DNA from: an uncultured Candidatus Bathyarchaeia archaeon
GTDB taxonomy: Archaea > Thermoproteota > Bathyarchaeia > 40CM-2-53-6 > CAVXDP01
DNA: 45,822 bases
Assembly (NCBI GenBank): GCA_964464765.1
Contig: CAYXJU010000003.1
Span: 1-45,822, forward strand
Reading direction: 5' to 3'
Part shown: positions 63 to 13,344 of the stretch, piece after piece
Position numbering within the stretch: position 1 is the stretch's first letter
Layout: each line of letters begins with the position of its first letter
Notes under the pieces: model-generated
Database searches by the model: none
What the model was told of the DNA's origin: nothing
Seen by the model: only the letters and a program-made list of their open reading frames with translations
Program-made: the position numbers and the translations under genes

Positions 63-1091
63 TTACCGTCGAAGTCTAAAAGATCTGCCTAATCTTAAAC
101 GCACGAAAATCGTTGACAATACCACACCTGCCGAGAGTATCACTACCACTACGAAACTGGCTGACACAATCATCATCAGCAACTCATGTCGAACAATTTC
201 AGCCAGAAACATAGCACACGTCACCGCAACCAACATAATACCACACGTTTTCAGATGCCTAGCGACGATCAGCGAACCTCTCTTTCTTGCCACATAGTAA
301 GACACCAAAGAAAGTGGAGGGCCCAGATACATCGTACCGATCAAAGCACTAGCCGAAAATCCACTAACCACCACACCTACTTCAGGGTTGAAACTGAACA
401 TCGAGTGAATGGAAGAAGCAAGTTTCAGAATGCCGATCAGAGGGTAAATGAAGACCCGAGTCAAAGCCCTCCATAGTGATGATTGAGATATGAAGTGCGC
501 TACACTCGGACTGAACGAATAGTACCAAATGTTGAAAACTTTCAGGAACTCTGAGCCAGCGTAACTCCTCATCACAACCTGGTCGCGAAAAACCCTGAGA
601 AACTGCACCGGTGCAGAAAGTTCAGAGCCATAAGCGGCTGTCGCGATGATGCATCTGGCTACAATCCTCAAATGGAACTGTCCTGAATCTTGAGCACCAT
701 TCGAAAGCATCGCGGTTACTGTCAACGTAAAATCCCCGGTCGGCGCTGTTAGAGATACCACTGCAATCATGGCAGAAGTCACGGTTCCCTCTGAGATATT
801 CACCGGATTAGGCTCGAATGTTATATCCACACCTGAGGGTTGACCGGAGCTGCTTAAAGTGCAGGTGAGTGGTTCAGTTCCAGCGTAAGCGACCAGATTG
901 AGCGTTACAGTCGCTATTTGCGTCCGAGCAGATGCCTGCGTTATCGTGGCCTCTTGGGGAGATAGTTCCATGGACACAGCAACGATAGACTGCGACTGTA
1001 CCGGAACCGATGGAGACAACCAAAGAAAAAGAATCATTGAGGATGCTAGCAGAATACCAAACGCGTTTCGCGATCTCAAGATATTTCTCAT
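63..1091 (-). CDS. Secreted/surface protein with CFI-box-CTERM domain
   Basis: N-terminal signal peptide, Ig-like beta-rich region, then CIIATAAYGSELSAPVQFLRVFRD...WYYSFSP (CFI-box motif) and several C-terminal TM helices. Confidence 0.85.
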   Translation of the reverse strand: MRNILRSRNAFGILLASSMILFLWLSPSVPVQSQSIVAVSMELSPQEATITQASARTQIATVTLNLVAYAGTEPLTCTLSSSGQPSGVDITFEPNPVNISEGTVTSAMIAVVSLTAPTGDFTLTVTAMLSNGAQDSGQFHLRIVARCIIATAAYGSELSAPVQFLRVFRDQVVMRSYAGSEFLKVFNIWYYSFSPSVAHFISQSSLWRALTRVFIYPLIGILKLASSIHSMFSFNPEVGVVVSGFSASALIGTMYLGPPLSLVSYYVARKRGSLIVARHLKTCGIMLVAVTCAMFLAEIVRHELLMMIVSASFVVVVILSAGVVLSTIFVRLRLGRSFRLRR

Positions 1092-1122
1092 CTAAACACC
1101 TGAACAATCAAATTCTTATTCT

Positions 1123-1845
1123 CTATTTCTTAGCCATCTTCGCAATAGCAAAGAAGATTGCGAGGATTAGAAGCACTACCACACCCAACAAGGCGTAAAC
1201 AAAAGTCGTCGAGCCTGAAAAGGACGGTGAACCTAGAAACGAGGGCAGCACAATTGTCAGGATCATAGTCGAGGTTTGATACTGAGTTGCGAAGTTTGTA
1301 GTATATGCTGTTACGGTAAGGAGTTCTGTCTTGCTTGTAGTCGTAGGGGCTGTAAGTGTCTGATATTGAGTCGTGGTTTGAGAAGCAGTTGTCAACCTCG
1401 TGACCGTTGAATACTGCGTGGACGTAGTCAATATTGTTGATGTTCGATATCGTGTTACGGTTAGAGTAGTTGTCGCAGTTGTCGAAGAAGATGGAATAAC
1501 CATATAATAGGTCGTGTACAGCGTCGTTGAACCATCCTGCAGAATGACCATCCTTTGACCCTCAGGAGGGCCCGCCGAACCTATCGAAAACTGCCAGAGG
1601 CCGACTCCAAGCTTTCCAGCGGTCAGAGTGTTGAACTGCCCATTCGGGAGGTAGATCAACAACTTTGTGTCGTTTATTCCCGTTGGTGTGCTGATTGTAA
1701 TCACGACAACTTCACCAAACTGGTATGTGGATTTATTCGTGTAACATTGGCCACTTGCAGCGGCCACAACTATCATGCCATGATACAGAACACTTAGGAT
1801 AATTGTGATGATACCCCACACCAATAATGCCTTGCTTTTCCTCAC
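1123..1845 (-). CDS. Secreted surface protein with Thr-rich linker and C-terminal membrane anchor
   Basis: GTG start after GGTGAGG RBS, signal peptide, long T/S-rich stalk, C-terminal hydrophobic helix followed by basic residues. Confidence 0.8.
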   Translation of the reverse strand: MRKSKALLVWGIITIILSVLYHGMIVVAAASGQCYTNKSTYQFGEVVVITISTPTGINDTKLLIYLPNGQFNTLTAGKLGVGLWQFSIGSAGPPEGQRMVILQDGSTTLYTTYYMVIPSSSTTATTTLTVTRYRTSTILTTSTQYSTVTRLTTASQTTTQYQTLTAPTTTSKTELLTVTAYTTNFATQYQTSTMILTIVLPSFLGSPSFSGSTTFVYALLGVVVLLILAIFFAIAKMAKK

Positions 1846-2174
1846 AGAACTTTCCTCACCTTTTTGGATTCGAATGTGAGTTTCGACGGTGCCGAGTGAA
1901 TAATCAAGAGGTCAGAGCGTATTAAGCGCTGGTATGTCACATATGTTAATTACTGATGCGTCACGTGACCAGAAGTGTTGGCTTGACGAAGTGGAAAGCA
2001 AACACTTTCGTTTTCTTTCAATCGAAGAACCTCGCGTCGGCAGTATCTGACAGCTCTGCGGAAGTAGTTGGATAGCGTGTTGTCAATTGTAATAGAGAAG
2101 ACGTAAGTTTCCCAAGAACGTACCACATGTTGGACGTGATGTATCTACATATGTGGAGGTGAGAAAGGTTGCCC

Positions 2175-2342
2175 ATGTCTTGGTACTGCAATGAATATGT
2201 ATGCTATCCATATTATGTAGGGTATCCGTACAATGTAAGCTATGGACACGGCGATCTACGTTATCACAAGCCGTTCCTGCGACACGGCCACTATGACATG
2301 GAGTATCACTATGATCAATATCCGTACTACTATTACTGGTGA
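2175..2342 (+). CDS. Small tyrosine-rich protein (55 aa), not in ORF track
   Basis: GGAGGTGA RBS at 2155-2162, in-frame TTG 2169/ATG 2175; translation MSWYCNEYVCYPYYVGYPYNVSYGHGDLRYHKPFLRHGHYDMEYHYDQYPYYYYW; pyrimidine/T-tract downstream. Confidence 0.75.
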   Translation: MSWYCNEYVCYPYYVGYPYNVSYGHGDLRYHKPFLRHGHYDMEYHYDQYPYYYYW

Positions 2343-2377
2343 ACAATGTGGTGAATGTGGCCGACGGCTCCAGACTC

Positions 2378-2402
2378 TTCGCTTCTTAATTTTCCCCTTT
2401 TT
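2378..2402 (+). terminator. Archaeal oligo-T terminator candidate
   Basis: ttcgcttcttaattttccccttttt about 35 nt after the Tyr-rich ORF stop. Confidence 0.5.
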
Positions 2403-2491
2403 GGAGTTGCTTCGCGATCGTGTGGAGGACTAACTTGAGCACTTGCGCATGAGATGCAGTTTTTGGATCTGGTAACTGGAGACGGTCAGGA

Positions 2492-2677
2492 TTATTTGGT
2501 AACCCACTTGTCCGCGACTTTTCTGTACTTCTTCTTCACAGCGCTCCATGCAATCTGAGCTCTTTCCTCGTCCGTGTAGGATTTGCCGGTCCTAGGATTT
2601 GTCTTGCTTTTCAGAGAATCCATGACTTCCTCGAAAATGTGCTGTGCATGAGAAGGAAGATTCTTGGGTACAGGCAT
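2492..2677 (-). CDS. chaB: ChaB family protein
   Basis: LPSHAQHIF...EERAQIAWSAVKKKYRK...W matches the ChaB signature; GGTGAG RBS. Confidence 0.85.
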   Translation of the reverse strand: MPVPKNLPSHAQHIFEEVMDSLKSKTNPRTGKSYTDEERAQIAWSAVKKKYRKVADKWVTK

Positions 2678-2686
2678 ATTTCGAAC

Positions 2687-3220
2687 TCACCGTGTCGATG
2701 AACGACTTGCAATTGAAGGTTCTGATGGACAACAGACATAGCAGAGTACTCCTCCCGCAATGGTTACGATTCCAGGTATCCAATTCAAGGTTACAAGCAT
2801 TATTATGGCTGCCACAATCGCGATTATTCCACCAACCCTACTTCTTCCAGCTCTAACTTTTATGAAAGCGTATATGGCTATGATTCCTAAAATTATGGTG
2901 ACTATGGCTCCTATGGTAAAGAAAGCCATGATCGCTCCCCATGCTTGCATTCCCCATCTGCTCCAAGCCGCAGACTCCATCATCTGTCGCATGGTCTGTC
3001 CCATGAAAAGCATTGACAACAAAGGAATGATGTTCAGAACAATCGCTAGAATCCCTCCAATTAATATCAAAGCTCCCCCAACCGCTCCCACGGTCAAATG
3101 ATCCTTCCTTTCGATCGCAGTTGCACCACTCGCGGATGCGCCAGGAACAGGCGTATCACATTTTGGACAGACTCGGGCACCTTCAGGAAGTTTCTCTCCA
3201 CATTTAGCACAATAAGTCAT
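2687..3220 (-). CDS. Zinc-ribbon membrane protein
   Basis: N-terminal CAKC...CPKC ribbon followed by about 4 hydrophobic helices. Confidence 0.8.
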   Translation of the reverse strand: MTYCAKCGEKLPEGARVCPKCDTPVPGASASGATAIERKDHLTVGAVGGALILIGGILAIVLNIIPLLSMLFMGQTMRQMMESAAWSRWGMQAWGAIMAFFTIGAIVTIILGIIAIYAFIKVRAGRSRVGGIIAIVAAIIMLVTLNWIPGIVTIAGGVLCYVCCPSEPSIASRSSTR

Positions 3221-3358
3221 ATTCTAATCCTCAACTCAGCTGCACAAATAACAGTAGATAAGTGTTGGTCAGTCACATGAGTTAATGACTCAAGGCTATA
3301 CGTCACTTCGGCGTCACCAAAGCTGAAAGTACAGCAAGAGAGATGCAGGAGTTAATTA

Positions 3359-3616
3359 ATGCCCACCTACAAATATGCCAACTTCTTGCAGACGAGTGAC
3401 AGCAAAATTTTCGATAAACTCCATCATTCAGGGGCTTCTGTCCCCTACTCAGGAATCTATCGATGTGCCACCTGCGGCTTCGAAATCACATGTGAAGAAG
3501 GTCGGATTTTTCCCCCAGAAAAAAGCTGTGCCAAGCATCATGCTAAATGGAAATGTGCGCAAGGCGAGGTAAACTGGCAATTGGCTGCCTTCACAATCCA
3601 TACCAACACCGAGTAA
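3359..3616 (+). CDS. Small zinc-ribbon protein (YjzC-like, PxSGIYxCxxC motif)
   Basis: AGGAG RBS; GASVPYSGIYRCATCG...FPP...W pattern. Confidence 0.7.
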   Translation: MPTYKYANFLQTSDSKIFDKLHHSGASVPYSGIYRCATCGFEITCEEGRIFPPEKSCAKHHAKWKCAQGEVNWQLAAFTIHTNTE

Positions 3617-3976
3617 GGGGTCTACTATTCAATTCCCAGATGATTGTTCTAGCTCAAGTGTCGTATTAATGGTGTGCACACAAAAAAACAGTCAACCGCC
3701 AAACAGCCAGACCGCCAGAAGACCCCTACGCACCAACTTAGAACCTTACAAAAACAAAATGGATAATCCCATTACGACTGACGTTTCTGCTAGATAGTAG
3801 ACCTATCGACGATTCTGCCACTAATGACTTATTAAGCAACTCTCCAGAGGAAACATGAGTTGAACAGCCAAGGAATCACCCAAGAAAAGCTGAAGAATAG
3901 TTGGGCAAATGGATCCATTTAATTAATTAGGTGGCTATTCCCAGCCCGCCATTCAAAAATCCATGTTTGGCAATAG

Positions 3977-4612
3977 ATGAAGGGCATCGACTTGGGCTCC
4001 GACGAATATTTGATACATCAATTTCTACACAAAGGTCGAAGGATGCGAGCACGTGCACATATCCGACCGGAAGCGAAAAAACGTAGAGACAAGGTCAAGC
4101 GCCGTGTCCAGAATGCGATGCGCAAAAGCGTCTCAGGTTCGGATGCAAGAAGAATTCTGGATGTCGGGACTGGATTTGGTTCAAATGCTCGACTTCTGGC
4201 AGAGATTCTTGGAGGAAGAGGAAAGATCTGGTCGATCGATCCGTCTCTTGGAGTCTTGCGTGAAGTGGAACGAATTCTCAAAGCTGAGAGGATCCTGAAA
4301 CATGTCAAATTGATTCAAGCCAAGGCTGAAGACCTGCCTTTTCGTGACGGCTTCTTCAGTCTTGTGACATCAGCCATGTTGGTGCATCATCTAGTTAACG
4401 TGCGACAAGGATTACGTGAAATGGTAAGAGTCCTTGCCAAAGGAGGAAGACTGGTTCTTGTCGACTGGAGGCCTGTCACTTCTGAAGTAGTTCCCCACCA
4501 GGCGCGTGATTTCGTAGCTCCGGAAAAAATCCTTCAGATCTTGACGCAGTCAGGCGTCTCGGTTAAGTTGCGAAAGTATCGCTACTGGTACTTAATTCAA
4601 GGAAAAAGATAG
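3977..4612 (+). CDS. Class I SAM-dependent methyltransferase (UbiE-like)
   Basis: ILDVGTGFG motif I, AEDLPF, VLAKGGRLVLVDW. Confidence 0.88.
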   Translation: MKGIDLGSDEYLIHQFLHKGRRMRARAHIRPEAKKRRDKVKRRVQNAMRKSVSGSDARRILDVGTGFGSNARLLAEILGGRGKIWSIDPSLGVLREVERILKAERILKHVKLIQAKAEDLPFRDGFFSLVTSAMLVHHLVNVRQGLREMVRVLAKGGRLVLVDWRPVTSEVVPHQARDFVAPEKILQILTQSGVSVKLRKYRYWYLIQGKR

Positions 4613-4633
4613 AAGAATGGAGTCAGCACTAGA

Positions 4634-5731
4634 TCATTCGAGCACTCTTGACGCTCTTGAAAGATACTCTGCACCATTGGGGCCTAGGAGTACGGTATCT
4701 TCGATCTTGATTCCCCCGATGGATCCGATCGTTAGTAACGAGTGACCTATGGCCAATGTCCAATTCTCTCTCATTTTCAATTGCGTGTGTGTTGGATAAT
4801 GACTTGGGTGAGGCCACTCTTCAAACTCCAGTCCGACGCCATGTATGGGTCCAGAAATCCAGTGAGACCCGTGTCCTTTCTCGGAAAATAGTTTTGAGAA
4901 CATTTCAGTAACTTGCCCAACCTTCCATCCGGGGCGCATCGCGTTCAATACGGTTTCTTGAATCTCTGCGTACAACTTCACTAAGGTTTTCTGTTCATTG
5001 TTCGGAGATCCACATGTGACTGTTCGCGCCACATCGCAGCAGTACATGTCCACGGTTGGGTGAACGTCCAATACAATCACATCTGTAGGCTCTATCTTTC
5101 GACGCAGAGTACCTCCATGCAGATGCAATGAGTGAGGGCCGCTGTCAACGAACGTGCTTGAAGAGAACCGCATGGCACCAGCCTTTCGCATAGCGTATTC
5201 AGCCTCGGCTGCTACTTCAATCTCAGTTTTGCCAGGAGAGATGGCGGATGTGCCCGCCTCTATTCCTTTATCTGCCACTGATGCAGCTTTGCGCATTAAA
5301 TTAACTTCCACAGGATCTTTTGCGTAGCGAAGCGGCATCAGTATCTCTTCATTCTCGATAACCGTCATACCTGGATTTGATTTCAGAAACTTGTACACAA
5401 GAAACCCAGGGTTGCTGTGAACACAGAAACCAACCTTTTGGTTACGTACGTTATGCTCGGTCACAATTGAAAAGAAGATCCGCATCAACTCTTGGGGGCT
5501 ACGCCAACCTCGAACGTCCTGAATACCCGTAACCTTTCTAGCGCTTTCAATTTCTTCAGCGAAAACTATGACGGTTGGCTCCCCTTCTTTCGGAAGAAAG
5601 ATTCGAGCTACGTTACGCATGTCACCTGTCAAATAGTAGTAGTTCTCTCTACTCGTGACTTGCAGCGCTGCGACTCCCTGCTCGACCATCAGTTCCTGAG
5701 CGCGCTTTCTTCGTTGTTGAAAAATGTTCAC
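4634..5731 (-). CDS. M24 family (Xaa-Pro peptidase-like) protein with atypical metal site
   Basis: Creatinase-like N-domain, LRYAKDPVE, D..DVART, HGVGL, IKIEDT. Confidence 0.88.
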   Translation of the reverse strand: MNIFQQRRKRAQELMVEQGVAALQVTSRENYYYLTGDMRNVARIFLPKEGEPTVIVFAEEIESARKVTGIQDVRGWRSPQELMRIFFSIVTEHNVRNQKVGFCVHSNPGFLVYKFLKSNPGMTVIENEEILMPLRYAKDPVEVNLMRKAASVADKGIEAGTSAISPGKTEIEVAAEAEYAMRKAGAMRFSSSTFVDSGPHSLHLHGGTLRRKIEPTDVIVLDVHPTVDMYCCDVARTVTCGSPNNEQKTLVKLYAEIQETVLNAMRPGWKVGQVTEMFSKLFSEKGHGSHWISGPIHGVGLEFEEWPHPSHYPTHTQLKMRENWTLAIGHSLLTIGSIGGIKIEDTVLLGPNGAEYLSRASRVLE

Positions 5732-5796
5732 TTGATCACCGGATGCGATAGTCTTTTGAAAGTGGGAAGATTAGCGTTTCGGCTTTGCTGGCAGGT

Positions 5797-6135
5797 TTAA
5801 GCCCAGGATTGTGGCTTGCCTATGAGTAATCCCGTGCACAGACCAAGTGAAAAACTCCCGCCAAATGGCAATGTTGTTGCGCTGACGGACATCAATCCAC
5901 GTAATCCCGCCTCCACCACACCAACAAGGAACTTCTGCGTATTTTCAGGACTGATCAAATGTAAACCAAGCCTTTGAAGGCCGCCGAGTAGCACTAGAAT
6001 TGCTACGAGAACAAACGAGAGCACGCCGACTATTAGGGATGTGATTCGTCTGAGAACTATGCCCAAAGCGAATCCGCCTACTCCACCTACACCAACCTGC
6101 GCCAAGAGTAGGCTGAGCAAGTTCTGATCCATCAT
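5797..6135 (-). CDS. FUN14-like small membrane protein
   Basis: QVGVGGVGGFALG...LPFGGSFSLG pattern typical of prokaryotic FUN14 proteins. Confidence 0.75.
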   Translation of the reverse strand: MMDQNLLSLLLAQVGVGGVGGFALGIVLRRITSLIVGVLSFVLVAILVLLGGLQRLGLHLISPENTQKFLVGVVEAGLRGLMSVSATTLPFGGSFSLGLCTGLLIGKPQSWA

Positions 6136-6304
6136 GAGGTCGCCTGGTCTGATTCAGACCTAGTGAACCGGACCATGAATATCTATTGGAGATATTTTGC
6201 GCAAATCGTGGAAAACTATGTTTCAAAATTGACAATTATGTATATGTTGCCTCAAACCATCGAAACGACAAGCTAAAGGAACAATGAAAGAATCCGGCAA
6301 GGCT

Positions 6305-7321
6305 CTACTGATTAGATCCACATTTTGGGCAATATTTCGCCGTAAGATGCATTGGAGCACCACAGCTTATACAATACTTGGTGGGCTCCTTCTGAGGCGC
6401 AGCTGAAAGTCTAGACCGTCGTCTCAGTAACACTATGGCCGCCACTGAAACAACCGCTATTATCACCACAACGAGTGCGATGCTTGACATGGAACTTCCA
6501 AACAAGAACACTCCTCCCGTTGTTTCGCTACTCGAAGTTGTTGTCGCAGTTGTTCTTGTTGTTACCATCGTTGTCGGCGACTGCGTGGTTCTGCTTGTTG
6601 TTATTGTAGTCGCCGTTTGAGTTGTAGTTGCAGTAGATGCTGTGAGACTAATGTCGTCCCAGTTTGCGTACTCCGTGTTTGTTGCAGGGTATCCGACGGT
6701 GATCGCGAGGGTGATAACGATCTTCGATAGCGAGTAGCCCGTTGAGTCTCCCCATCTGCTTTCAAAGTCGTCTTTCACATTTGTTTGGAAGTAGTTCCAG
6801 CTCATGGGGATAGCCCCCTGAACAAAGTAGTCAGCTTCGTCTTGCCTGATGTTCGCCCAACTCTCTGTTCCACCAAGCCACGCGACGTAATACACAATCT
6901 TGAGAACTCTGATGTCTGAGGTCTGGAAAACTGTGTACAAGGTGAGCAACGCTTTTATCTCCACAATTCCTTTTCCCGAAACCCAAGGTTTCGCCCAGAA
7001 CGCAAACTCCAAATCAAGCGGCAAACTAGAGCTTTCGATAGTCTGGTTTACTCCACTTCCATACCAGACACCTGCCTGTGGAGTAGGCGTGCCCTGAATA
7101 GCCAATGAATGCTGCCCTTCGTAAGGGTCTACTGGATCCAAAGAAGCATATCCACGACCAAGAGTATACTTCTCCCATCCGTTCCAACCCTCTTCAAACC
7201 CTCCGTTCATGATCAGTTCATTTCTTGCCGATAACGACTGTGTAAAGGCTGCAGAGATGCTTAGGACTACGACAAGGCAGATAAGAATTGAGACAAAAGA
7301 GCTAGTTCTCAACAGAGCCAC
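6305..7321 (-). CDS. Membrane-anchored protein: extracellular CBM/galactose-binding-like domain, Thr-rich linker, TM helix, cytoplasmic zinc ribbon
   Basis: Signal peptide, NELIMNGGFEEGWNGW...WDDISL, T-rich stalk, TM plus RRR, C-terminal CISC...CPKCG. Confidence 0.8.
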   Translation of the reverse strand: MALLRTSSFVSILICLVVVLSISAAFTQSLSARNELIMNGGFEEGWNGWEKYTLGRGYASLDPVDPYEGQHSLAIQGTPTPQAGVWYGSGVNQTIESSSLPLDLEFAFWAKPWVSGKGIVEIKALLTLYTVFQTSDIRVLKIVYYVAWLGGTESWANIRQDEADYFVQGAIPMSWNYFQTNVKDDFESRWGDSTGYSLSKIVITLAITVGYPATNTEYANWDDISLTASTATTTQTATTITTSRTTQSPTTMVTTRTTATTTSSSETTGGVFLFGSSMSSIALVVVIIAVVSVAAIVLLRRRSRLSAAPQKEPTKYCISCGAPMHLTAKYCPKCGSNQ

Positions 7322-7398
7322 TTCTCATTGAATCTGTATGCTGAAGGATATTTATAATAACCATTTCCTGAAAACCGATAGATAGGAAGAGAACTGGC

Positions 7399-7929
7399 TT
7401 GGACCTGAAAGTGAAGAATTCAATTGTTGAACTCAAGCAGGGAGACATTACTGAGATGGATACGGATGCGATTGTAAACGCCGCCAACGATGCGCTGCAG
7501 ATGGGTGGAGGAGTTGCAGGAGCCATTAGAAGAAAAGGTGGACCGAAGATTCAAGAGGAATGTAACAGAATTGGAGGCACAATCGTCGGAGGTGCCGTGA
7601 TAACTACAGGAGGAAAACTGAAGGCTAGATACGTGATTCATGCCGTTGGGCCTAGGTATGGTGAAGGCGACGAGGACAGGAAACTAAGGAACGCAACTCT
7701 AAACAGCCTTAAACTTGCTGACGAACATTCATTGAAGAGCATTGCATTCCCAGCAGTGAGTGCTGGAATATTCGGTTTTCCGAAGGATAGGTGTGCACAG
7801 ATCATGCTTTCAACTACTATGGAGTACTTGAAAGGGACAACGAATCTTCAAAGGATAGTCTTCTGCCTTCATGATTCTGAGATGCTTCATGTGTTTCAAC
7901 GTGAACTGAAGAAATATCAATCAGTGTAG
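7399..7929 (+). CDS. Macro domain protein (MacroD/YmdB-type ADP-ribose-binding or hydrolysing)
   Basis: GDIT, AIVNAAN, GGGVAGAI, VIHAVGP, SIAFPAVSAGIFGFP. Confidence 0.93.
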   Translation: MDLKVKNSIVELKQGDITEMDTDAIVNAANDALQMGGGVAGAIRRKGGPKIQEECNRIGGTIVGGAVITTGGKLKARYVIHAVGPRYGEGDEDRKLRNATLNSLKLADEHSLKSIAFPAVSAGIFGFPKDRCAQIMLSTTMEYLKGTTNLQRIVFCLHDSEMLHVFQRELKKYQSV

Positions 7930-7976
7930 TGAGCTTCTGATATCTAGAATCGCTTCGTATAATGTGATGCCGGAGT

Positions 7977-8222
7977 TTGGTCTTGACTCAACGAGGCAAA
8001 TCGACCTCTGACGATACTGTCAGAACCTACAGAGAGCTAAAGAGTGTCCGAGGCCAAATGAAGAAATGTCTGAAAGAATTGCATGTCCAATCGAAACGTG
8101 GACACATGATGGCATTAGGAGAATTGGAAGAAGCGACGAGAGACCTCGCACAAAGAAAGACACTTCTTAGAAAGAAATTTGAAAAGTTGACACATCGAAA
8201 AGGACCCTATAGAATCAACTAG
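7977..8222 (+). CDS. Small basic helical hypothetical protein
   Basis: TTG start after GGAG; fills the gap between the macro and SGNH genes; K/R/E-rich coiled-coil-like composition. Confidence 0.55.
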   Translation: MVLTQRGKSTSDDTVRTYRELKSVRGQMKKCLKELHVQSKRGHMMALGELEEATRDLAQRKTLLRKKFEKLTHRKGPYRIN

Positions 8223-8246
8223 CGTGCAAACCCAAAGATTTCAAGC

Positions 8247-8879
8247 CTATTCTTTACTAGAATAGTACTTCGACAGAAGTCCTTTCAGGGCTTGGTCGAA
8301 TATTGTCTCAGCAATCTTCTCATATCCAGCTGTGCTCAAATGAAGCCCATCATCGCTGAATTCTTCTCTGAGACGATTCGTTCTTGGATCAGCGGTCGTT
8401 CTGAATAGATCTGCAAAGGATTTGCCATTTTCAGTGCAGTAGGTTCTAATCATCTCGTTCAATTCAAGACGCGGCGGAATCAATGAATCGCAACCCAAGA
8501 TTGATGGGACGCTACATGCAATGATTTCAATTCCATTCTTCGATGTCGCCTCATACATTTTCGACAGGTTACCAAATATTTCCCTCGGAGAGATCCCCCA
8601 TCCTATGTCATTCGATCCACCCAAGATTATGACAAAATCTGGTCTAACACTCAGGGCATCTCTATCGAATCTGGTGAGCATTTCACTGGTGAGTTCACCC
8701 AGTACCCCTCGATTACGGATCTGAAATTCCTTTTTTTTCTGTTGAGATTCATTCAGTTTCAAGAGCCGATGCTCAAGAAATATAGTATAAGGTGTGAAAC
8801 CAGTCCACTCTTCTTCAGTTAATGACTGATAACCTGCAGTGAGACTGTCGCCCATCGCGACCAAAATAATTCTATTCAT
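8247..8879 (-). CDS. SGNH/GDSL hydrolase
   Basis: GDSL block I, NRGVLG, GGSND, DGLH; ATG 8879 preferred over the overlapping TTG 8924. Confidence 0.9.
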   Translation of the reverse strand: MNRIILVAMGDSLTAGYQSLTEEEWTGFTPYTIFLEHRLLKLNESQQKKKEFQIRNRGVLGELTSEMLTRFDRDALSVRPDFVIILGGSNDIGWGISPREIFGNLSKMYEATSKNGIEIIACSVPSILGCDSLIPPRLELNEMIRTYCTENGKSFADLFRTTADPRTNRLREEFSDDGLHLSTAGYEKIAETIFDQALKGLLSKYYSSKE

Positions 8880-8898
8880 CTTAGGAGATCCCTTGGAA

Positions 8899-9465
8899 TC
8901 ACTTTCCCGATCTAAGCGCTTCAAAAAGAGTTTTTCCCACGTCGGTCGCTAGGCCTTTCTCAGCTGACTCCAAGAATTCAATCATACTTCTGGCAGAGTG
9001 GCCCTCTCTACTGTATCTTAGAGCTTGAAGGCTCATCTCAATCCTATCTATATCTCTCAGAACCCTCGATTCCCGTGAACGTTGTTTCCAATATTCATTC
9101 ATCAAAGACAGATACTTCCTTCTGAGTCCAGAGGGTAGTGAAACCAGTGTGGCAGTCGCAGCTCGCTTCTCAAGTGTTTTAACCTTAACACCTAGTTTCT
9201 GTTTCTGTCGAGGAGTAAGATCGCCAGTGACAGATTCGGGAAGATCATGAAGTAACGCCATCCTGATTAAACGTTCACCGTCTAATCCACAAAGATCTCC
9301 CACTATCATGGCCATGATGGCACAGGCATAAGAGTGATCTGCTACCGACTCTGGTTTCTTCACGCCAGCTCTGATCCAACCCTTTCTTCTAACACGCTTC
9401 AATCTCCCAGCATTGTCTTGAAAGTCTATGACATAGTTTGCCAGACGGTTCAACCATGACCTCAT
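8899..9465 (-). CDS. HD-domain hydrolase (YfbR/HDDC2-like 5'-deoxynucleotidase)
   Basis: LKRVRRKGW, ESVADHS, ALLHDLPESVTGD, DRIEM. Confidence 0.9.
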   Translation of the reverse strand: MRSWLNRLANYVIDFQDNAGRLKRVRRKGWIRAGVKKPESVADHSYACAIMAMIVGDLCGLDGERLIRMALLHDLPESVTGDLTPRQKQKLGVKVKTLEKRAATATLVSLPSGLRRKYLSLMNEYWKQRSRESRVLRDIDRIEMSLQALRYSREGHSARSMIEFLESAEKGLATDVGKTLFEALRSGK

Positions 9466-9667
9466 CTCGAGTTACATCGGTACTTCAGCCATCCACATAT
9501 ATACGCTGTCTGGGACGATCAATCCGCAGTATGACGCTAACCTTTCGATCGTGTTTACGAAGGGGATGGTGTTCGACTGGACGTTTCTACCGCAACAATT
9601 TGATAAGGAAAGAGTCAGAATTAGTGGTAGATTCTTCTTTGACAAGCTCAAGGCTGTTGATGTCAAA

Positions 9668-11212
9668 ATGAAACTTGTAGCAAAACCTATTGGTTTAGAG
9701 GCTTTCGGCAAATCCGTGGTAATACTGCATATAGACGATGCTGCAGAACTTGGAACTAGAAGTTCTGGAAGGGTACAACTTCTCCACGGTGACAAGGGGC
9801 TCACAGCCATAGTTAACACAACTGGCAGGATTGTCATGAGAGGTGAAGTTGGTGTGTACAAAGAGGTCCAAGATGCCTTGGGTCTCTGGGGCGAAGAGAT
9901 TGTAGATGTTGATGTAGCGAGCCCTCCGACATCTTTGAGTTATATCCGCAATAGACTAGAGGGGAGAAAACTCAACAGCCATGAAATATCCGAAATCATA
10001 AGAGACACCGTGCGTGGCAATCTGAGCGAAATAGAGATCGCATCTTTTGTCACATCGCTGAACACATTTCACTTGGATCTGGACGAGGCGACAAGCCTCT
10101 CAATGGCGATGGTTGAGTCGGGTAAGACACTGAACCTAAACAGAAAACCCATAGTCGACAAGCACTCAATTGGAGGAGTTCCTGGAGACAAAACAACGCT
10201 TGTGGTGGTTCCAGTAATAGCGTCCTGTGGCTTGACAATTCCCAAGAGTTCATCCCGAGCCATCACATCAGCGGCTGGAAGTGCAGATAGAGCAGAGGTC
10301 CTTATGCCAGTCAACCTTGAGATTGAGGAGGTAAGACGAGTTGTTGAGAAGATCGGGGGATGCGTGGTGTGGGGAGGGGCCCTACAGATGGCCCCTGCAG
10401 ACGATCTGTTTGTTCAAGTAGAGTATCCTCTATCCATAGACCCACTCCTGTTACCGTCGATTGTCAGCAAGAAGAAAGCTGTAGGAGCTGAGTATGTCGT
10501 TGTTGACATACCTCTGGGAATGGGCGCTAAGGTCAAGACAATAGCGGATGCACGATTGCTGGCAAGAGACTTCATGGAACTAGGAAAGAGACTCGGAATG
10601 AGGATTCAATGCGCAATCACCAATGGAAACCAACCAATCGGTCATGCGATCGGCCCCGCACTTGAAGCAAGAGAAGCCCTTGAAACTTTGACCAGAAAAC
10701 ATTCGGTCCCAGATCTTATCGACAAGGCTACGGACATTGCGGGCATGATCATCGATATGACAGGAAGCGTGGATGGCAAGAGAATAGCAGCTGCGGCGCT
10801 GTCACAAGGAAAAGCAGAGAAGAAGATGAGAGAGATAATTGCTGAACAAGGTGGAGACCAAGAGATCAAACCTGAAGACATAAAGGTTGGAGAGAAAACG
10901 CTTGGCTTCGACTCCACAGAGTCGGGATTTGTCCTTTGGATAAATAGTTCGAAACTCGTTGAGACAGCAAGGTTAGCAGGAGCTCCAAAGGACAAAGGAG
11001 CGGGCTTACTTCTCCACAAGAAGATTGGCGACACAGTTCATCAAGGTGAGAAGCTCTTGAGTCTGTATGCTGAAAAATCAGGCAAACTGGAAAAAGCCAA
11101 AGAGGTTCTACAAGAGGAAAGAGTCGTAATGATCGGCCATCGGACAGAGATGACAATGGCCATGATAAAGGAAGTACCAGTCTACAAGGAGCCCTTCATT
11201 CTCGAAAGATGA
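9668..11212 (+). CDS. deoA: AMP phosphorylase (thymidine phosphorylase family)
   Basis: DKHSIGGVPGDKT, PKSSSRAITSAAGSAD, SKKKAVG, QPIGHAIGPALEARE, AGAPKDKGAG; ATG 9668 is the likely start rather than GTG 9551. Confidence 0.93.
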   Translation: MKLVAKPIGLEAFGKSVVILHIDDAAELGTRSSGRVQLLHGDKGLTAIVNTTGRIVMRGEVGVYKEVQDALGLWGEEIVDVDVASPPTSLSYIRNRLEGRKLNSHEISEIIRDTVRGNLSEIEIASFVTSLNTFHLDLDEATSLSMAMVESGKTLNLNRKPIVDKHSIGGVPGDKTTLVVVPVIASCGLTIPKSSSRAITSAAGSADRAEVLMPVNLEIEEVRRVVEKIGGCVVWGGALQMAPADDLFVQVEYPLSIDPLLLPSIVSKKKAVGAEYVVVDIPLGMGAKVKTIADARLLARDFMELGKRLGMRIQCAITNGNQPIGHAIGPALEAREALETLTRKHSVPDLIDKATDIAGMIIDMTGSVDGKRIAAAALSQGKAEKKMREIIAEQGGDQEIKPEDIKVGEKTLGFDSTESGFVLWINSSKLVETARLAGAPKDKGAGLLLHKKIGDTVHQGEKLLSLYAEKSGKLEKAKEVLQEERVVMIGHRTEMTMAMIKEVPVYKEPFILER

Positions 11213-11243
11213 AGACGTGCTTGTACCAACGGAATAGACCAGT

Positions 11244-11288
11244 GGCAAGCACTTCTCTACGCTATTTTATAGAAGTTGCCTCGCTTTT
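11244..11288 (+). terminator. Imperfect hairpin plus T-tract after AMP phosphorylase
   Basis: GGCA..ACTTCT / AGAAGT TGCC arms followed by gctttt. Confidence 0.3.
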
Positions 11289-11444
11289 AATAGTACTAGT
11301 AAATAATCGTGCTTCCGCTCGTCGTTTTCTACATGACCCATGCAATACAGTTTTAGTTATGCTACATTGTCACTTCGAGATCGATCAGTCATGACGACTG
11401 TTGAGATCTTAGAAATGAAGCCGAAGAACAGACAGGAAGGCAAC

Positions 11445-11630
11445 ATGACCTTCAAAGAAAAAGCACGTGTCAACGAGAAAGTCAAGCAACCGAGATTCTT
11501 CTGTTCAAACTGCAATCATGAGATCTTCTTATGCATGTTGTACTGCGACGAGTGTGGAGGAGAGATCGCTTGGCCGGAAAAGTACAAGACCATCATTCCA
11601 AAGGAAAAAGAACGGAAGAAAAACGATTAA
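11445..11630 (+). CDS. Small zinc-ribbon protein
   Basis: ATG after AGGAAGG; CSNC...CDECGG...W; basic tail. Confidence 0.7.
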   Translation: MTFKEKARVNEKVKQPRFFCSNCNHEIFLCMLYCDECGGEIAWPEKYKTIIPKEKERKKND

Positions 11631-11739
11631 CCGACGACAAAGCGTTCTCTCGGAAGGATACTGGATCCCATCATCTAAAAGAAATTTTGCTGCCTTTCTA
11701 GAGAATCTTCTGCTTCAATACGAATCCCCTTTTTCATAA

Positions 11740-12471
11740 TTATCTTAGCTGTGCAGACGCATGTGAGAGGACAGGTAACAGATCTGTCAAAGACCTTACC
11801 GTAAGATCTGCCCTGACATCAGAATCCCATCTTCGTCGCCAGACATGTATCGTCCTCATTCCAGCTTCTTTCGCTCCAGCTATGTCAGTGAAAGGTTTGT
11901 CACCCACGAAAACCGTTGCCTCGTTAGATACATCTAGCAATCTCGAAGCCTTGAGAAAAGGAACAGGGCTCGGTTTGAGTTCGACCGTGTCCTCTCCAGC
12001 AACAACCACTACAGACAGAAACTCCCGGAAGGGGAGCATATTGATTCGACGAAGCTTGACTCCGGGACTTCCATCAGTATCCGAGACCAGACCTAACTTG
12101 TATCCACGCTGTCTGAGGCATTCTAGAACGCTAATTGTATCTGGATAGGGCAGACTGTACTTGGAATAAGATTCCCAATACTCGGCCGTCATCCTACTAG
12201 CCAGATCTTCTGGCAATTCAAGGCGCGGGTCAATTTCAGCGACAAGAGTTGGCCACCAGAGGTTCCTATCATACTGAGAATCCCTGTTCATGTGATCATC
12301 CAAAAGCTTGATCTTCAAAAGGAAATCGGCAGTATCCACTTGAACTCCACTTACCTTAAGGAATTCTAGAATTAGGTGAGCTACTCTTTCATGAGCCTTC
12401 ATCAACCCCGTTTCGGCATCAATCAGTGTCTCATCAAGATCGAAAAGGACAGCTTCAATCCCATCGAACAA
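11740..12471 (-). CDS. HAD-superfamily hydrolase, subfamily IA
   Basis: FDLDETL, LVSD, KP, VGD...DIAGAKEAGM. Confidence 0.92.
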   Translation of the reverse strand: MFDGIEAVLFDLDETLIDAETGLMKAHERVAHLILEFLKVSGVQVDTADFLLKIKLLDDHMNRDSQYDRNLWWPTLVAEIDPRLELPEDLASRMTAEYWESYSKYSLPYPDTISVLECLRQRGYKLGLVSDTDGSPGVKLRRINMLPFREFLSVVVVAGEDTVELKPSPVPFLKASRLLDVSNEATVFVGDKPFTDIAGAKEAGMRTIHVWRRRWDSDVRADLTVRSLTDLLPVLSHASAQLR

Positions 12472-12644
12472 TCACATAACCCTCCATGAAATATCACGAC
12501 CGAGACTAGGCTCCTAAAGACAAGTTCACTCTCATCACTTAAAATACGTCTCATTCTTCGAGCTTCAAGGAACGCCATTTTAAGGAACAAAAGACCATAA
12601 TGCAGAAACCATTACTGCTGAAACCAGTGGTGAAGTGACCTAGC

Positions 12645-12785
12645 ATGGGTGAACTTCGATATAGAATTGCGCAGATCTCGGACACGCACATCTCTCCGCA
12701 TGGCAATTTTGTGGAAGCAACCTTTGACTTGGCCGTGTGCGTCAAGACAGCTACATTGTTCGGGATTCCACTGAATTCAACATGA
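12645..12785 (+). pseudogene. Truncated metallophosphoesterase N-terminal fragment
   Basis: GGTGA RBS; MGELRYRIAQISDTHISPHGNFVEATFDLAV... contains motif I (DxH) but stops at 46 aa. Confidence 0.65.
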
Positions 12786-12825
12786 AAATGAAGCGATCAG
12801 TACCCAAGGAACGAGTGATGATCAG

Positions 12826-13344
12826 ATGACGATAATGATCGACGACGCCGGAGTAGGTGACCTCTTATTCGGCGTGGTCATCGGCGCATATCGAAGCGAG
12901 ACTGGAGACTTCCGCTACGATGTTGTCGATGTCAAGTATTTTCAATATCCAGTATTCAAACGCAAGAAGTATCTTCAAGAAACCTCTCGCATTGTCTTCG
13001 AAATGTTGAACAGACTTGAAATCAAAGATGGCGAACCGATCTACATATGCAGCGGAAATATTTTTGATCAGGCATATCATGACTTGAAGACAAAGTACAA
13101 TGATCTTGTACACGTGTCGAAGATTACTGGAACTGCGCAACACTATACAGAAACAGCCTATCTGGATGAGGTTAGGAATCTTGGCTACGAGCCTAGATCG
13201 GATAGAGACACAAAGAGAGCCAAAAGTTTCTTTCACATGCTGAACTGGGTAAGGCGTGATCCAAGACGGCTAAAATATGTAAAAACGGGATGGCCGCGAC
13301 TTAGAAGACATAATCTTAGAGCCCACAGAAGAGTTCACGACTAG
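12826..13344 (+). CDS. Uncharacterised RNase HII-like fold protein
   Basis: N-terminal IMIDDAGVGDLLFGVVIG resembles the RNase HII GIDEAGRG..GP motif; remainder divergent. Confidence 0.65.
   Translation: MTIMIDDAGVGDLLFGVVIGAYRSETGDFRYDVVDVKYFQYPVFKRKKYLQETSRIVFEMLNRLEIKDGEPIYICSGNIFDQAYHDLKTKYNDLVHVSKITGTAQHYTETAYLDEVRNLGYEPRSDRDTKRAKSFFHMLNWVRRDPRRLKYVKTGWPRLRRHNLRAHRRVHD

Follow-up and report, generated by a model that had tools for sequence, protein, structure and literature searches.

The window analysed here, that is, the whole stretch of 45,822 nt, is an entire contig (C3) of a 2.08-Mb metagenome bin of 340 contigs that is 82% complete with 5.8% contamination, and the element under consideration is a short tyrosine-rich open reading frame (ORF) found near its left end. 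The Tyr-rich ORF occupies positions 2169..2342 of the + strand and encodes 57 aa when read from a TTG at 2169, or 55 aa when read from an ATG at 2175, with a TGA stop codon at 2340-2342 in both cases. It is found alone between two opposite-strand genes, in a spacer of 646 nt (1846-2491), where it is preceded by a Shine-Dalgarno (SD) octamer, GGAGGTGA (2155..2162, + strand), whose TGA serves as the upstream in-frame stop of the ORF, and followed, 44 nt past the stop codon, by a T-rich tract, TTAATTTTCCCCTTTTT (2386..2402, + strand), which is a candidate archaeal oligo-T terminator. The leader or promoter region upstream of the start (1978..2168, + strand) is invariant in the contig of a near-identical strain. 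The host is an uncultured freshwater-sediment archaeon: the bin contains RNA polymerase subunit N (PF01194), a family that, among the control genomes, was matched in four archaea only, and the window itself encodes an archaeal-type AMP phosphorylase (589 bits versus a cut-off of 535). As discussed in the following paragraphs, this ORF is probably a real and translated micro-protein gene restricted to its species.

The frame opened by the ATG (2175-2339, + strand) comprises 55 codons, and its product, MSWYC...YPYYYYW, contains 17 Tyr (31%), 5 His, 4 Pro, 2 Cys and 2 Trp residues, with the YPY motif occurring three times and the sequence YPYYYYW at the C-terminus. This composition, including the counts of Tyr, His, Cys and Trp, the three YPY motifs and the terminal YPYYYYW, had been reported in the initial annotation of this DNA, and the observation was confirmed when the frame was re-read from the sequence. 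An in-frame tandem duplication of 18 nt is found at 2196..2231 (+ strand), whose two copies share 78% identity at a spacing of 18 and encode YVCYPY and YVGYPY, respectively. The absence of a signal peptide, which had also been claimed, holds as well, since hydrophobic segments are absent from the product (15-residue Kyte-Doolittle means reach -0.04 at most) and neither a signal peptide nor a membrane segment was detected in it; the protein is therefore probably cytoplasmic.

The Tyr-rich composition is not due to chance. Across all six frames, the whole genome has 13,677 ORFs of 40 aa or more, whose Tyr fraction has a mean of 0.025, a standard deviation of 0.022 and a runner-up value of 0.228; the Tyr-rich ORF ranks first among them, with a fraction of 0.298. 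Additionally, codons starting with TA (TAN) were counted in all 55-codon windows of the six frames, with no selection for open frames, and the richest loci were found on the contigs C92 (25 TAN), C56 (19) and C99 (17), together with the Tyr-rich ORF (17). All four are wholly TAY, the Tyr codons, on one strand, except for the own stop codon of the C56 locus and a TAA beyond it, while many TAA and TAG codons occur in their opposite-strand shadows, and the other three windows sit within long or conserved proteins. In the Tyr-rich ORF, 17 of the 17 in-frame TAN codons are TAY; given that TAY represents 53% of TAN genome-wide, the chance of such an outcome is 0.53^17 = 2.2e-5. The TA dinucleotides of the ORF are distributed by codon phase as 17/4/0. 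The ordering of the residues also departs from randomness, as three YPY motifs have a probability of 0.0028 given the composition (200,000 shuffles), and the YYYY run is not unusual on the same basis (P = 0.27). These results bear out the proposition that a composition of this kind would be unlikely in non-coding DNA.

The initial annotation had also described the ribosome-binding site as strong, and this is upheld by the use of the octamer in the genome as a whole. The GGAGGTGA octamer is present in 55 copies, and 26 of them (47%) precede, at 2-12 nt, a start codon that opens at least 50 codons, versus 12%, 12%, 17% and 18% of the copies of four control octamers (n = 102, 65, 60 and 97, respectively) that precede an ORF of at least 50 aa. 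Thus, 26 combinations of the octamer with an ORF were seen versus about 7-9 expected, which places about 70% of the cases above the control rate, and GGAGGTGA is a functional ribosome-binding site in this genome. No 16S rRNA gene was found in the bin from which the anti-SD sequence could be read directly. With respect to the start codon, the 12 ORFs of at least 100 aa found behind the octamer have spacers of 5-10 nt. The TTG at 2169 is separated from it by 6 nt, inside this range, and the ATG at 2175 by 12 nt, outside of it, so that the TTG is the likelier start and the one previously assigned is amended in favour of the 57-aa form. TTG starts behind the octamer recur in small ORFs of this genome, and in one such case, belonging to the C85 family described below, both the start and its SD site are conserved in one relative. 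It was also observed that 14 of the 55 copies lead ORFs of 50-99 aa, versus about 3 expected according to an estimate from the control rates, so that small genes led by strong ribosome-binding sites are probably numerous in this genome.

Variation between strains and a transcript library provide a second kind of evidence. A metagenome contig of 1,623 nt is 99.1% identical to positions 1400-3022 of the window, and 9 of its 14 differences are found in the 646-nt spacer, none in the 174-nt ORF and none in the interval 1978-2363 (P = 0.059 for 0 of the 9 spacer differences falling in the ORF). In the contigs of two DNA runs (X1 and X2) the ORF is likewise free of differences, and when one site from run X2 (2367) and another from the RNA run X15 (2148) are added, 0 of 11 differences fall in the ORF (P = 0.032). 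Since these strains are near-identical and not independent, their invariance represents weak support (P 0.03-0.06). A more diverged strain is represented in run X6, whose contigs cover 1659-1908 and 2325-2793 only and are thus uninformative on the ORF; stretches lacking coverage in a run carry no weight as evidence. Regarding RNA, a metatranscriptome run of another study (X15) yielded a 172-nt contig, at a depth of 16.6, that covers 2049-2220 with two differences, one of them at 2148, and thereby the start of the ORF, with the flanking genes showing no coverage. This contig comes from one run only, is strandless and ends inside the ORF, at 2220; as neither the strand nor the ends of a transcript can be read from contigs, and carry-over of DNA is possible, it is only a hint of transcription.

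Beyond the stop codon, the + strand carries T-runs at 2390-2393 and 2398-2402 and a second T5 at 2460-2464. Archaeal termination uses oligo-T tracts, and the presence of these runs past the stop agrees with the earlier designation of a T-rich terminator candidate. A scan for bacterial-type promoter and terminator consensus returned no + strand terminator but only consensus noise, and no archaeal promoter box was assigned, given that neither a positional AT peak nor a clear box emerged from 330 SD-led genes. The run of Tyr codons at the end of the ORF (YPYYYYW, then stop) followed by T-runs could also be the signature of a regulatory element, either a leader ORF sensing charged tRNA-Tyr, as in an attenuator, or a small regulatory RNA at about 2049-2220. 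The RNA-library contig covers just this latter interval, and its + strand folds slightly better than shuffled sequences (z -2.15; 5 of 200), which is not the case for the - strand (z -0.73). However, the two genes that come next downstream (2492-3220) run on the opposite strand, the first + strand ORF of at least 100 aa begins only at 3977, and the lack of a same-strand gene downstream argues against a leader-peptide attenuator. Moreover, no stable or alternative hairpin was found in the 3′ region 2310-2470, which folds worse than shuffles (z +1.36), no Rfam family matched within 1700-2700 at E ≤ 1, and 55 codons with Tyr throughout are unlike the short leader peptides of bacteria. A regulatory element is therefore very improbable as the explanation of this locus.

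The overlapping frames had been considered shadows in the initial annotation, and the codon statistics led to the same view. Codon usage was scored by a log-odds model per codon, for which 695 ORFs of 300 aa or more served as the training set, and the scores were compared with those of real 57-codon chunks and of the best antisense frames. The antisense ORF of 87 aa at 2083..2346 (- strand) scored -0.149 bit/codon, a value as low as which is found in only 0.04% of the real chunks, and 64% of the best antisense frames score at least as high. Additionally, in the frame matching the Tyr-rich stretch, its TAN codons include TAA and TAG, and no Pfam family was found for this ORF or for three other overlapping ORFs. 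The antisense ORF was thus rejected as a gene on account of its codon score and the lack of a Pfam family.

The initial annotation had raised metal binding among several possible roles, and for this idea one weak lead was obtained. In the AlphaFold2 model, computed from the single sequence, the sole predicted element is an N-terminal beta-hairpin that carries both Cys residues. Together with two downstream His residues, these form a candidate single metal site, C-x4-C-x14-H-x5-H (2187..2267, + strand), whose putative ligands in the 55-aa numbering are Cys5 (2187-2189), Cys10 (2202-2204), His25 (2247-2249) and His31 (2265-2267). The lead itself is a sub-threshold match to the Pfam family PF16366 (CEBP_ZZ), with E 0.006 and 17.3 bits versus a cut-off of 29.8, at profile positions 24-57 of 58, accompanied by a match to the PDB entries 2MKE and 2M13 (E 0.045-0.052) in which both Cys, both His and the L-R-x-H-x-P motif are aligned. 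ZZ domains hold two zinc sites through eight Cys/His ligands. The alignment pairs residues 2-39 of the 57-aa form with the second half of the ZZ domain of CPEB1 and includes the C-x4-C pair, the two His and L-R-x-H-x-P. However, that domain belongs to a eukaryotic RNA-binding protein, no RRM is present here and one of the two zinc sites would be possible at most; the CRSC pair of CPEB1 aligns to VGYP in the Tyr-rich ORF, whose whole product has two Cys, and the match is to be taken as a lead only and not as membership. The aligned pattern suggests a single Cys2His2-type metal site followed by a predicted disordered Tyr/His tail.

Other metal-binding micro-proteins and zinc fingers were compared as well. 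The classical C2H2 zinc finger has the spacing C-x2-4-C-x12-H-x3-5-H, and this class was ruled out by the spacing found here, C-x4-C-x14-H-x5-H, and by the lack of a Pfam zf-C2H2 match at E ≤ 0.1. The archaeal small zinc-finger micro-proteins, of which the HVO_0758 family (NCBIfam NF041912) is an example, are alike in size (about 50-60 aa) and in kind, as their metal knuckles are built on Cys; however, two CxxC pairs are found there, whereas the Tyr-rich ORF has one C-x4-C pair plus His and no NCBIfam match. A four-copy complex prediction made with the 57-aa form gave a score of 0.00 with partner pLDDT below 50 and weighs neither way on self-association.

Several observations weigh against the Tyr-rich ORF being a gene with the properties outlined above, in addition to the limits of the strain and RNA evidence already given. 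A phmmer search of 1,835,955,588 representative sequences returned 0 matches at E ≤ 0.001, and a word-index search of 5.8 billion clusters gave no word-sharing candidate; the ORF itself is missing from this latter collection, in which P0002, another Tyr-rich protein of the same genome, is present, indicating that no contributing gene caller had called it. Among 400 other genomes of the class, 0 matches were found at E ≤ 0.01, a six-frame search of 60 relatives returned only matches with E ≥ 0.018, several of them with internal stops, and no match was found in viral contigs. One apparent relative in genome contigs (L026) was discarded, as it consisted of the search pattern LRYHKPFL itself, antisense within an 832-aa bacterial gene. 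With no homologues, a cross-species test of purifying selection is not possible. Furthermore, the codon score of the Tyr-rich frame, +0.032 bit/codon, corresponds to the 5.5th percentile of real chunks and falls short of the 0.062 that marks the 95th percentile of antisense frames; coding is thus not settled by the codon score. Among its Tyr codons, TAT outnumbers TAC by 12 to 5, whereas TAT has a share of 43% in long genes and TAC is favoured in the other Tyr-rich genes. Finally, the AlphaFold2 model has a mean pLDDT of 47.9 and a pTM of 0.24, and the ZZ match is below the Pfam cut-off and covers 4 of the 8 ligands.

The searches agree with the earlier statement that the protein has no recognisable relative, and they were extended by others: the ESM Atlas gave no usable match, no match was found in PHROGs or NCBIfam, DUF5320 (PF17253) was not matched at E ≤ 0.1 by the Tyr-rich ORF or by P0002, and a literature search at keyword level found no description of such a Tyr-rich archaeal small protein. 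As far as can be seen from these database comparisons, the Tyr-rich ORF appears to be species-restricted; it belongs to no known family, its kind being that of Tyr-rich low-complexity small proteins. Undetected relatives are possible, since low-complexity sequence evolves fast and the family of P0002 is detectable only through its conserved N-terminus.

Taken together, the lack of a homologue in any search, the lack of synteny described below, the marginal codon score with an atypical choice of Tyr codons, the absence of a call by the gene callers behind the protein collection and the low confidence of the structure model could be explained if the locus held no functional gene, but an untranslated or incidentally translated stretch, or a very young proto-gene, whose Tyr frame arose from the local history of in-frame duplication with no selected product. 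However, such an origin does not readily account for 17 of 17 TAN codons being TAY, for the full SD octamer placed at a working distance and belonging to a class whose ORF-leading copies are seen about three times as often as expected, for strain differences that number 0 in the ORF versus 9-11 in the flanks, for the RNA-library contig covering the start of the ORF, or for the non-random ordering of YPY. We consider this explanation unlikely, while allowing it a share of probability that is far from negligible. Because of the SD use, the all-TAY codons, the strain invariance and the RNA-library contig, the frame appears to be coding and not accidental, and we infer that it is translated.

The Tyr-rich ORF is not the only hyper-aromatic sequence of this genome. 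The C56 locus encodes P0002 (C56:8011-8238, + strand), a protein of 75 aa with 23% Tyr that belongs to an unnamed conserved family, with open-frame homologues in 8 of 61 genomes (single sequence, E ≤ 0.01) and in 7 of 105 genomes of the order (profile), this genome included, spread over several families of the order. The P0002 family combines a conserved N-terminal segment, GGLLGAYWTRPGGWLGxxHGH, with a hypervariable Y/P tail that ends, for example, in YYYYPW, and its gene comes in this genome after a DUF116 gene and a TldD/PmbA peptidase pair. The C92 protein (C92:1504-2439, + strand; 311 aa) has an N-terminal hydrophobic segment, a coiled coil and a membrane anchor at the C-terminus, and 25 of the residues in a stretch of 55 are Tyr (YYPYYYGYYPYYYG...). 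Its homologues were found in 19 of 60 relatives, and all 10 loci that were read keep a Tyr/Trp-rich stretch at the same position, the sequence of the stretch being hypervariable between relatives (e.g., ...YWWWWYP...). The C99 protein (C99:3755-5473, - strand; 572 aa) has a signal peptide, a C-terminal membrane anchor and the insert GYYGYYNYTGYPYQQYPTDYGYYYY; the hyper-aromatic stretches of the C92 and C99 proteins, both membrane-anchored, are found in the predicted outer parts.

Two further kinds of small ORF complete this group. The C85 ORF (C85:6426-6658, + strand), which is small and rich in Tyr, Trp, Pro, His and Gln, starts with TTG behind GGAGGTGA and runs off the contig end. Its homologues, found in 3 of 60 relatives, are open frames of 113-123 aa in which the motif NYQSMFxQYPHQYYQQQGQ is conserved and the C-terminal tail is hydrophobic. 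The C14 ORF (C14:457-657, + strand; 66 aa) combines a Y/P-rich N-terminus with a zinc ribbon at the C-terminus, and homologues of it were found in 8 of 60 relatives; it weakly touches the NF041912 model (E 0.025), and Y/P-rich zinc-ribbon ORFs resembling it are also found on C21 and C232. No significant Pfam or NCBIfam family was found for the P0002, C92, C99, C85 and C14 proteins.

The Tyr-rich ORF resembles the other hyper-aromatic stretches of the genome in composition and in the YPY motif, as YPY or YPYY recurs in P0002, in its relatives and in the C92 protein. A likeness is seen with the P0002 family, which is also small, with 20-25% Tyr, YPYY and HGH motifs and tails such as ...YYYYPW or ...GCPW, to be compared with ...YPYYYYW in the Tyr-rich ORF; however, the conserved N-terminal hydrophobic GGLLGAYWTRPGGW segment and the WTRPGGW motif of that family are absent from it. 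A comparison by hhalign of the Tyr-rich ORF with the P0002 family gave a probability of 3.3%, with only RHGH aligned, and no ordered similarity to the other Tyr-rich proteins of the genome (C92, C99, P0002 and C85) was found, with z from -0.55 to +0.47 versus composition-preserving shuffles; both results are to be counted among the points against the ORF noted above. The occurrence of aromatic stretches of similar composition inside the larger C92 and C99 proteins, together with the accessory nature of the region, could suggest that the ORF is the leftover fragment of a larger envelope-protein gene, of which the aromatic stretch alone was preserved. However, the ORF aligns to C92, C99, P0002 and C85 no better than shuffles do, the frame starts right behind a full SD site and ends just ahead of the T-runs, and no family match was found in the neighbouring frames, which makes a gene remnant the least probable of the explanations considered here.

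Concerning the neighbourhood, the Tyr-rich ORF is convergent with a ChaB-family gene of 61 aa (2492-2677, - strand; Pfam E 1.1e-10). On its other side are found a gene for a 240-aa protein (1123-1845, - strand) that has a hydrophobic segment at either end and a long Thr-rich stretch in between, and which would be membrane-anchored, and, further left, a gene for a 342-aa protein (63-1091, - strand) with a CFI-box-CTERM domain match in mid-protein (residues 147-219); both of these proteins are envelope-like in appearance and have no Pfam family. The 15 ORFs scanned in 63-13344 include ChaB, a zinc-ribbon/DUF4064 membrane protein, a methyltransferase, an M24 peptidase, a macro domain, a GDSL lipase and HD and HAD hydrolases. 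Upstream of the Tyr-rich ORF the contig extends for only 2.1 kb, and what follows on the left side is beyond its end. Four genomes of the same genus share about 69% DNA identity with this one where they match at all, and DNA and protein searches found in them no synteny around the ORF, the neighbours being dispersed over other contigs; the ChaB gene was not found in these four genomes, and no Tyr-rich ORF lies beside their DUF4064 homologues. The lack of synteny and of ChaB in the same-genus genomes indicates that the Tyr-rich ORF is found in an accessory region.

The initial annotation had proposed, by analogy with the spore-coat proteins CotC and CotU, a cross-linked structural role, which would here correspond to an exported envelope protein joined by dityrosine. 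According to PMC7944565, CotC and CotU, outer spore-coat proteins of Bacillus subtilis, are Tyr-rich and form high-mass forms. A Tyr content of 31% with Y-x-Y motifs, the location of the hyper-aromatic stretches of C92 and C99 in predicted outer parts of membrane-anchored proteins, the adjoining genes for the Thr-rich membrane-anchored protein and the CFI-box protein, and one haem-peroxidase fragment encoded in the genome would be consistent with such a role. However, no signal peptide, hydrophobic segment or membrane segment is present, searches of the 82%-complete genome yielded neither a multicopper oxidase (Cu-oxidase_3) nor a DyP peroxidase, and the haem-peroxidase fragment was found at the edge of a contig, in a bin whose contamination is 5.8%; a tyrosinase search gave no match here, nor in the control genomes, and is thus without bearing. 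In the comparisons with Pfam, NCBIfam and the 1.84 billion representatives, the Tyr-rich ORF showed, beyond the sub-threshold ZZ match, no sequence relation to CotC/CotU or to any other family. It also differs from CotC and CotU in having Cys and His, in not being rich in Lys and Asp and in the absence of a CotE-type assembly partner nearby, and its host is an archaeon, with no spores. The proposed role was therefore not sustained, and an exported dityrosine-linked protein appears improbable. A very high Tyr content is also found in two groups of eukaryotic proteins, the high-glycine-tyrosine keratin-associated and the mussel foot proteins, which measure about 50-80 aa and serve as an aromatic glue or matrix, but these are secreted or matrix-embedded and represent a functional analogy only.

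The small size, the abundance of Tyr, His and Trp, the repeated Y-x-Y and the two Cys could likewise fit the precursor of a ribosomally made and post-translationally modified peptide, for instance with Tyr/Trp/His cross-links, and the related-looking P0002 is encoded near the TldD/PmbA peptidase pair. However, no maturase-type gene (radical-SAM, P450, YcaO, ATP-grasp or similar) was found among the 15 ORFs scanned in 63-13344 of a contig that begins 2.1 kb upstream, and the gene stands alone between two opposite-strand genes, so that little probability is assigned to a peptide precursor.

The explanation that we favour is that the Tyr-rich ORF would be a monocistronic gene for a soluble micro-protein of 55-57 aa with no export signal. 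Its N-terminal third could form a small Cys-x4-Cys beta-hairpin that, with the downstream His, may hold one metal ion of the Zn-type Cys2His2 kind, and the remainder would be a disordered Tyr/His-rich tail whose YPY motifs may act as an aromatic ‘sticker’. This tail could promote self-association, or it could dock on the hyper-aromatic Tyr/Trp stretches of the conserved membrane-anchored proteins. The existence of the gene is probable, as stated at the outset; the complete proposal, in which the gene, the metal knuckle and the sticker tail that self-associates or docks on the aromatic stretches of the genome are all correct, is tentative and rather more open to doubt than to acceptance. A bolder version would see in the Tyr-rich ORF a soluble and newly arisen component of an ‘aromatic sticker’ system that spans the lineage and includes the C92, P0002, C85 and C14 families, in which a metal-knuckle micro-protein would dock on or cap aromatic stretches by pi-stacking, tuning a membrane-proximal matrix or serving Tyr/Trp redox (hole-hopping) chemistry in a cell of anoxic sediment, its gene having been caught at birth in one species; this version is speculative and, as a whole, quite unlikely.

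Taken alone, the finding amounts to one orphan ORF in a metagenome bin, known from sequence. To our knowledge, small proteins of uncultured sediment archaea are almost never annotated, and the product of this ORF, if translated, would be among the most Tyr-rich natural proteins known. The wider pattern is that the four stretches of this genome that are richest in TA-starting codons are all open Tyr frames, and that the order has at least four conserved aromatic-rich protein families that neither Pfam nor NCBIfam names. The Tyr-rich ORF is thus a candidate case of gene birth at the species level, and, together with these families, it offers targets for establishing the role of hyper-aromatic low-complexity sequence in archaeal cells, which may lie in adhesion, in a protein matrix or in metal or redox chemistry.

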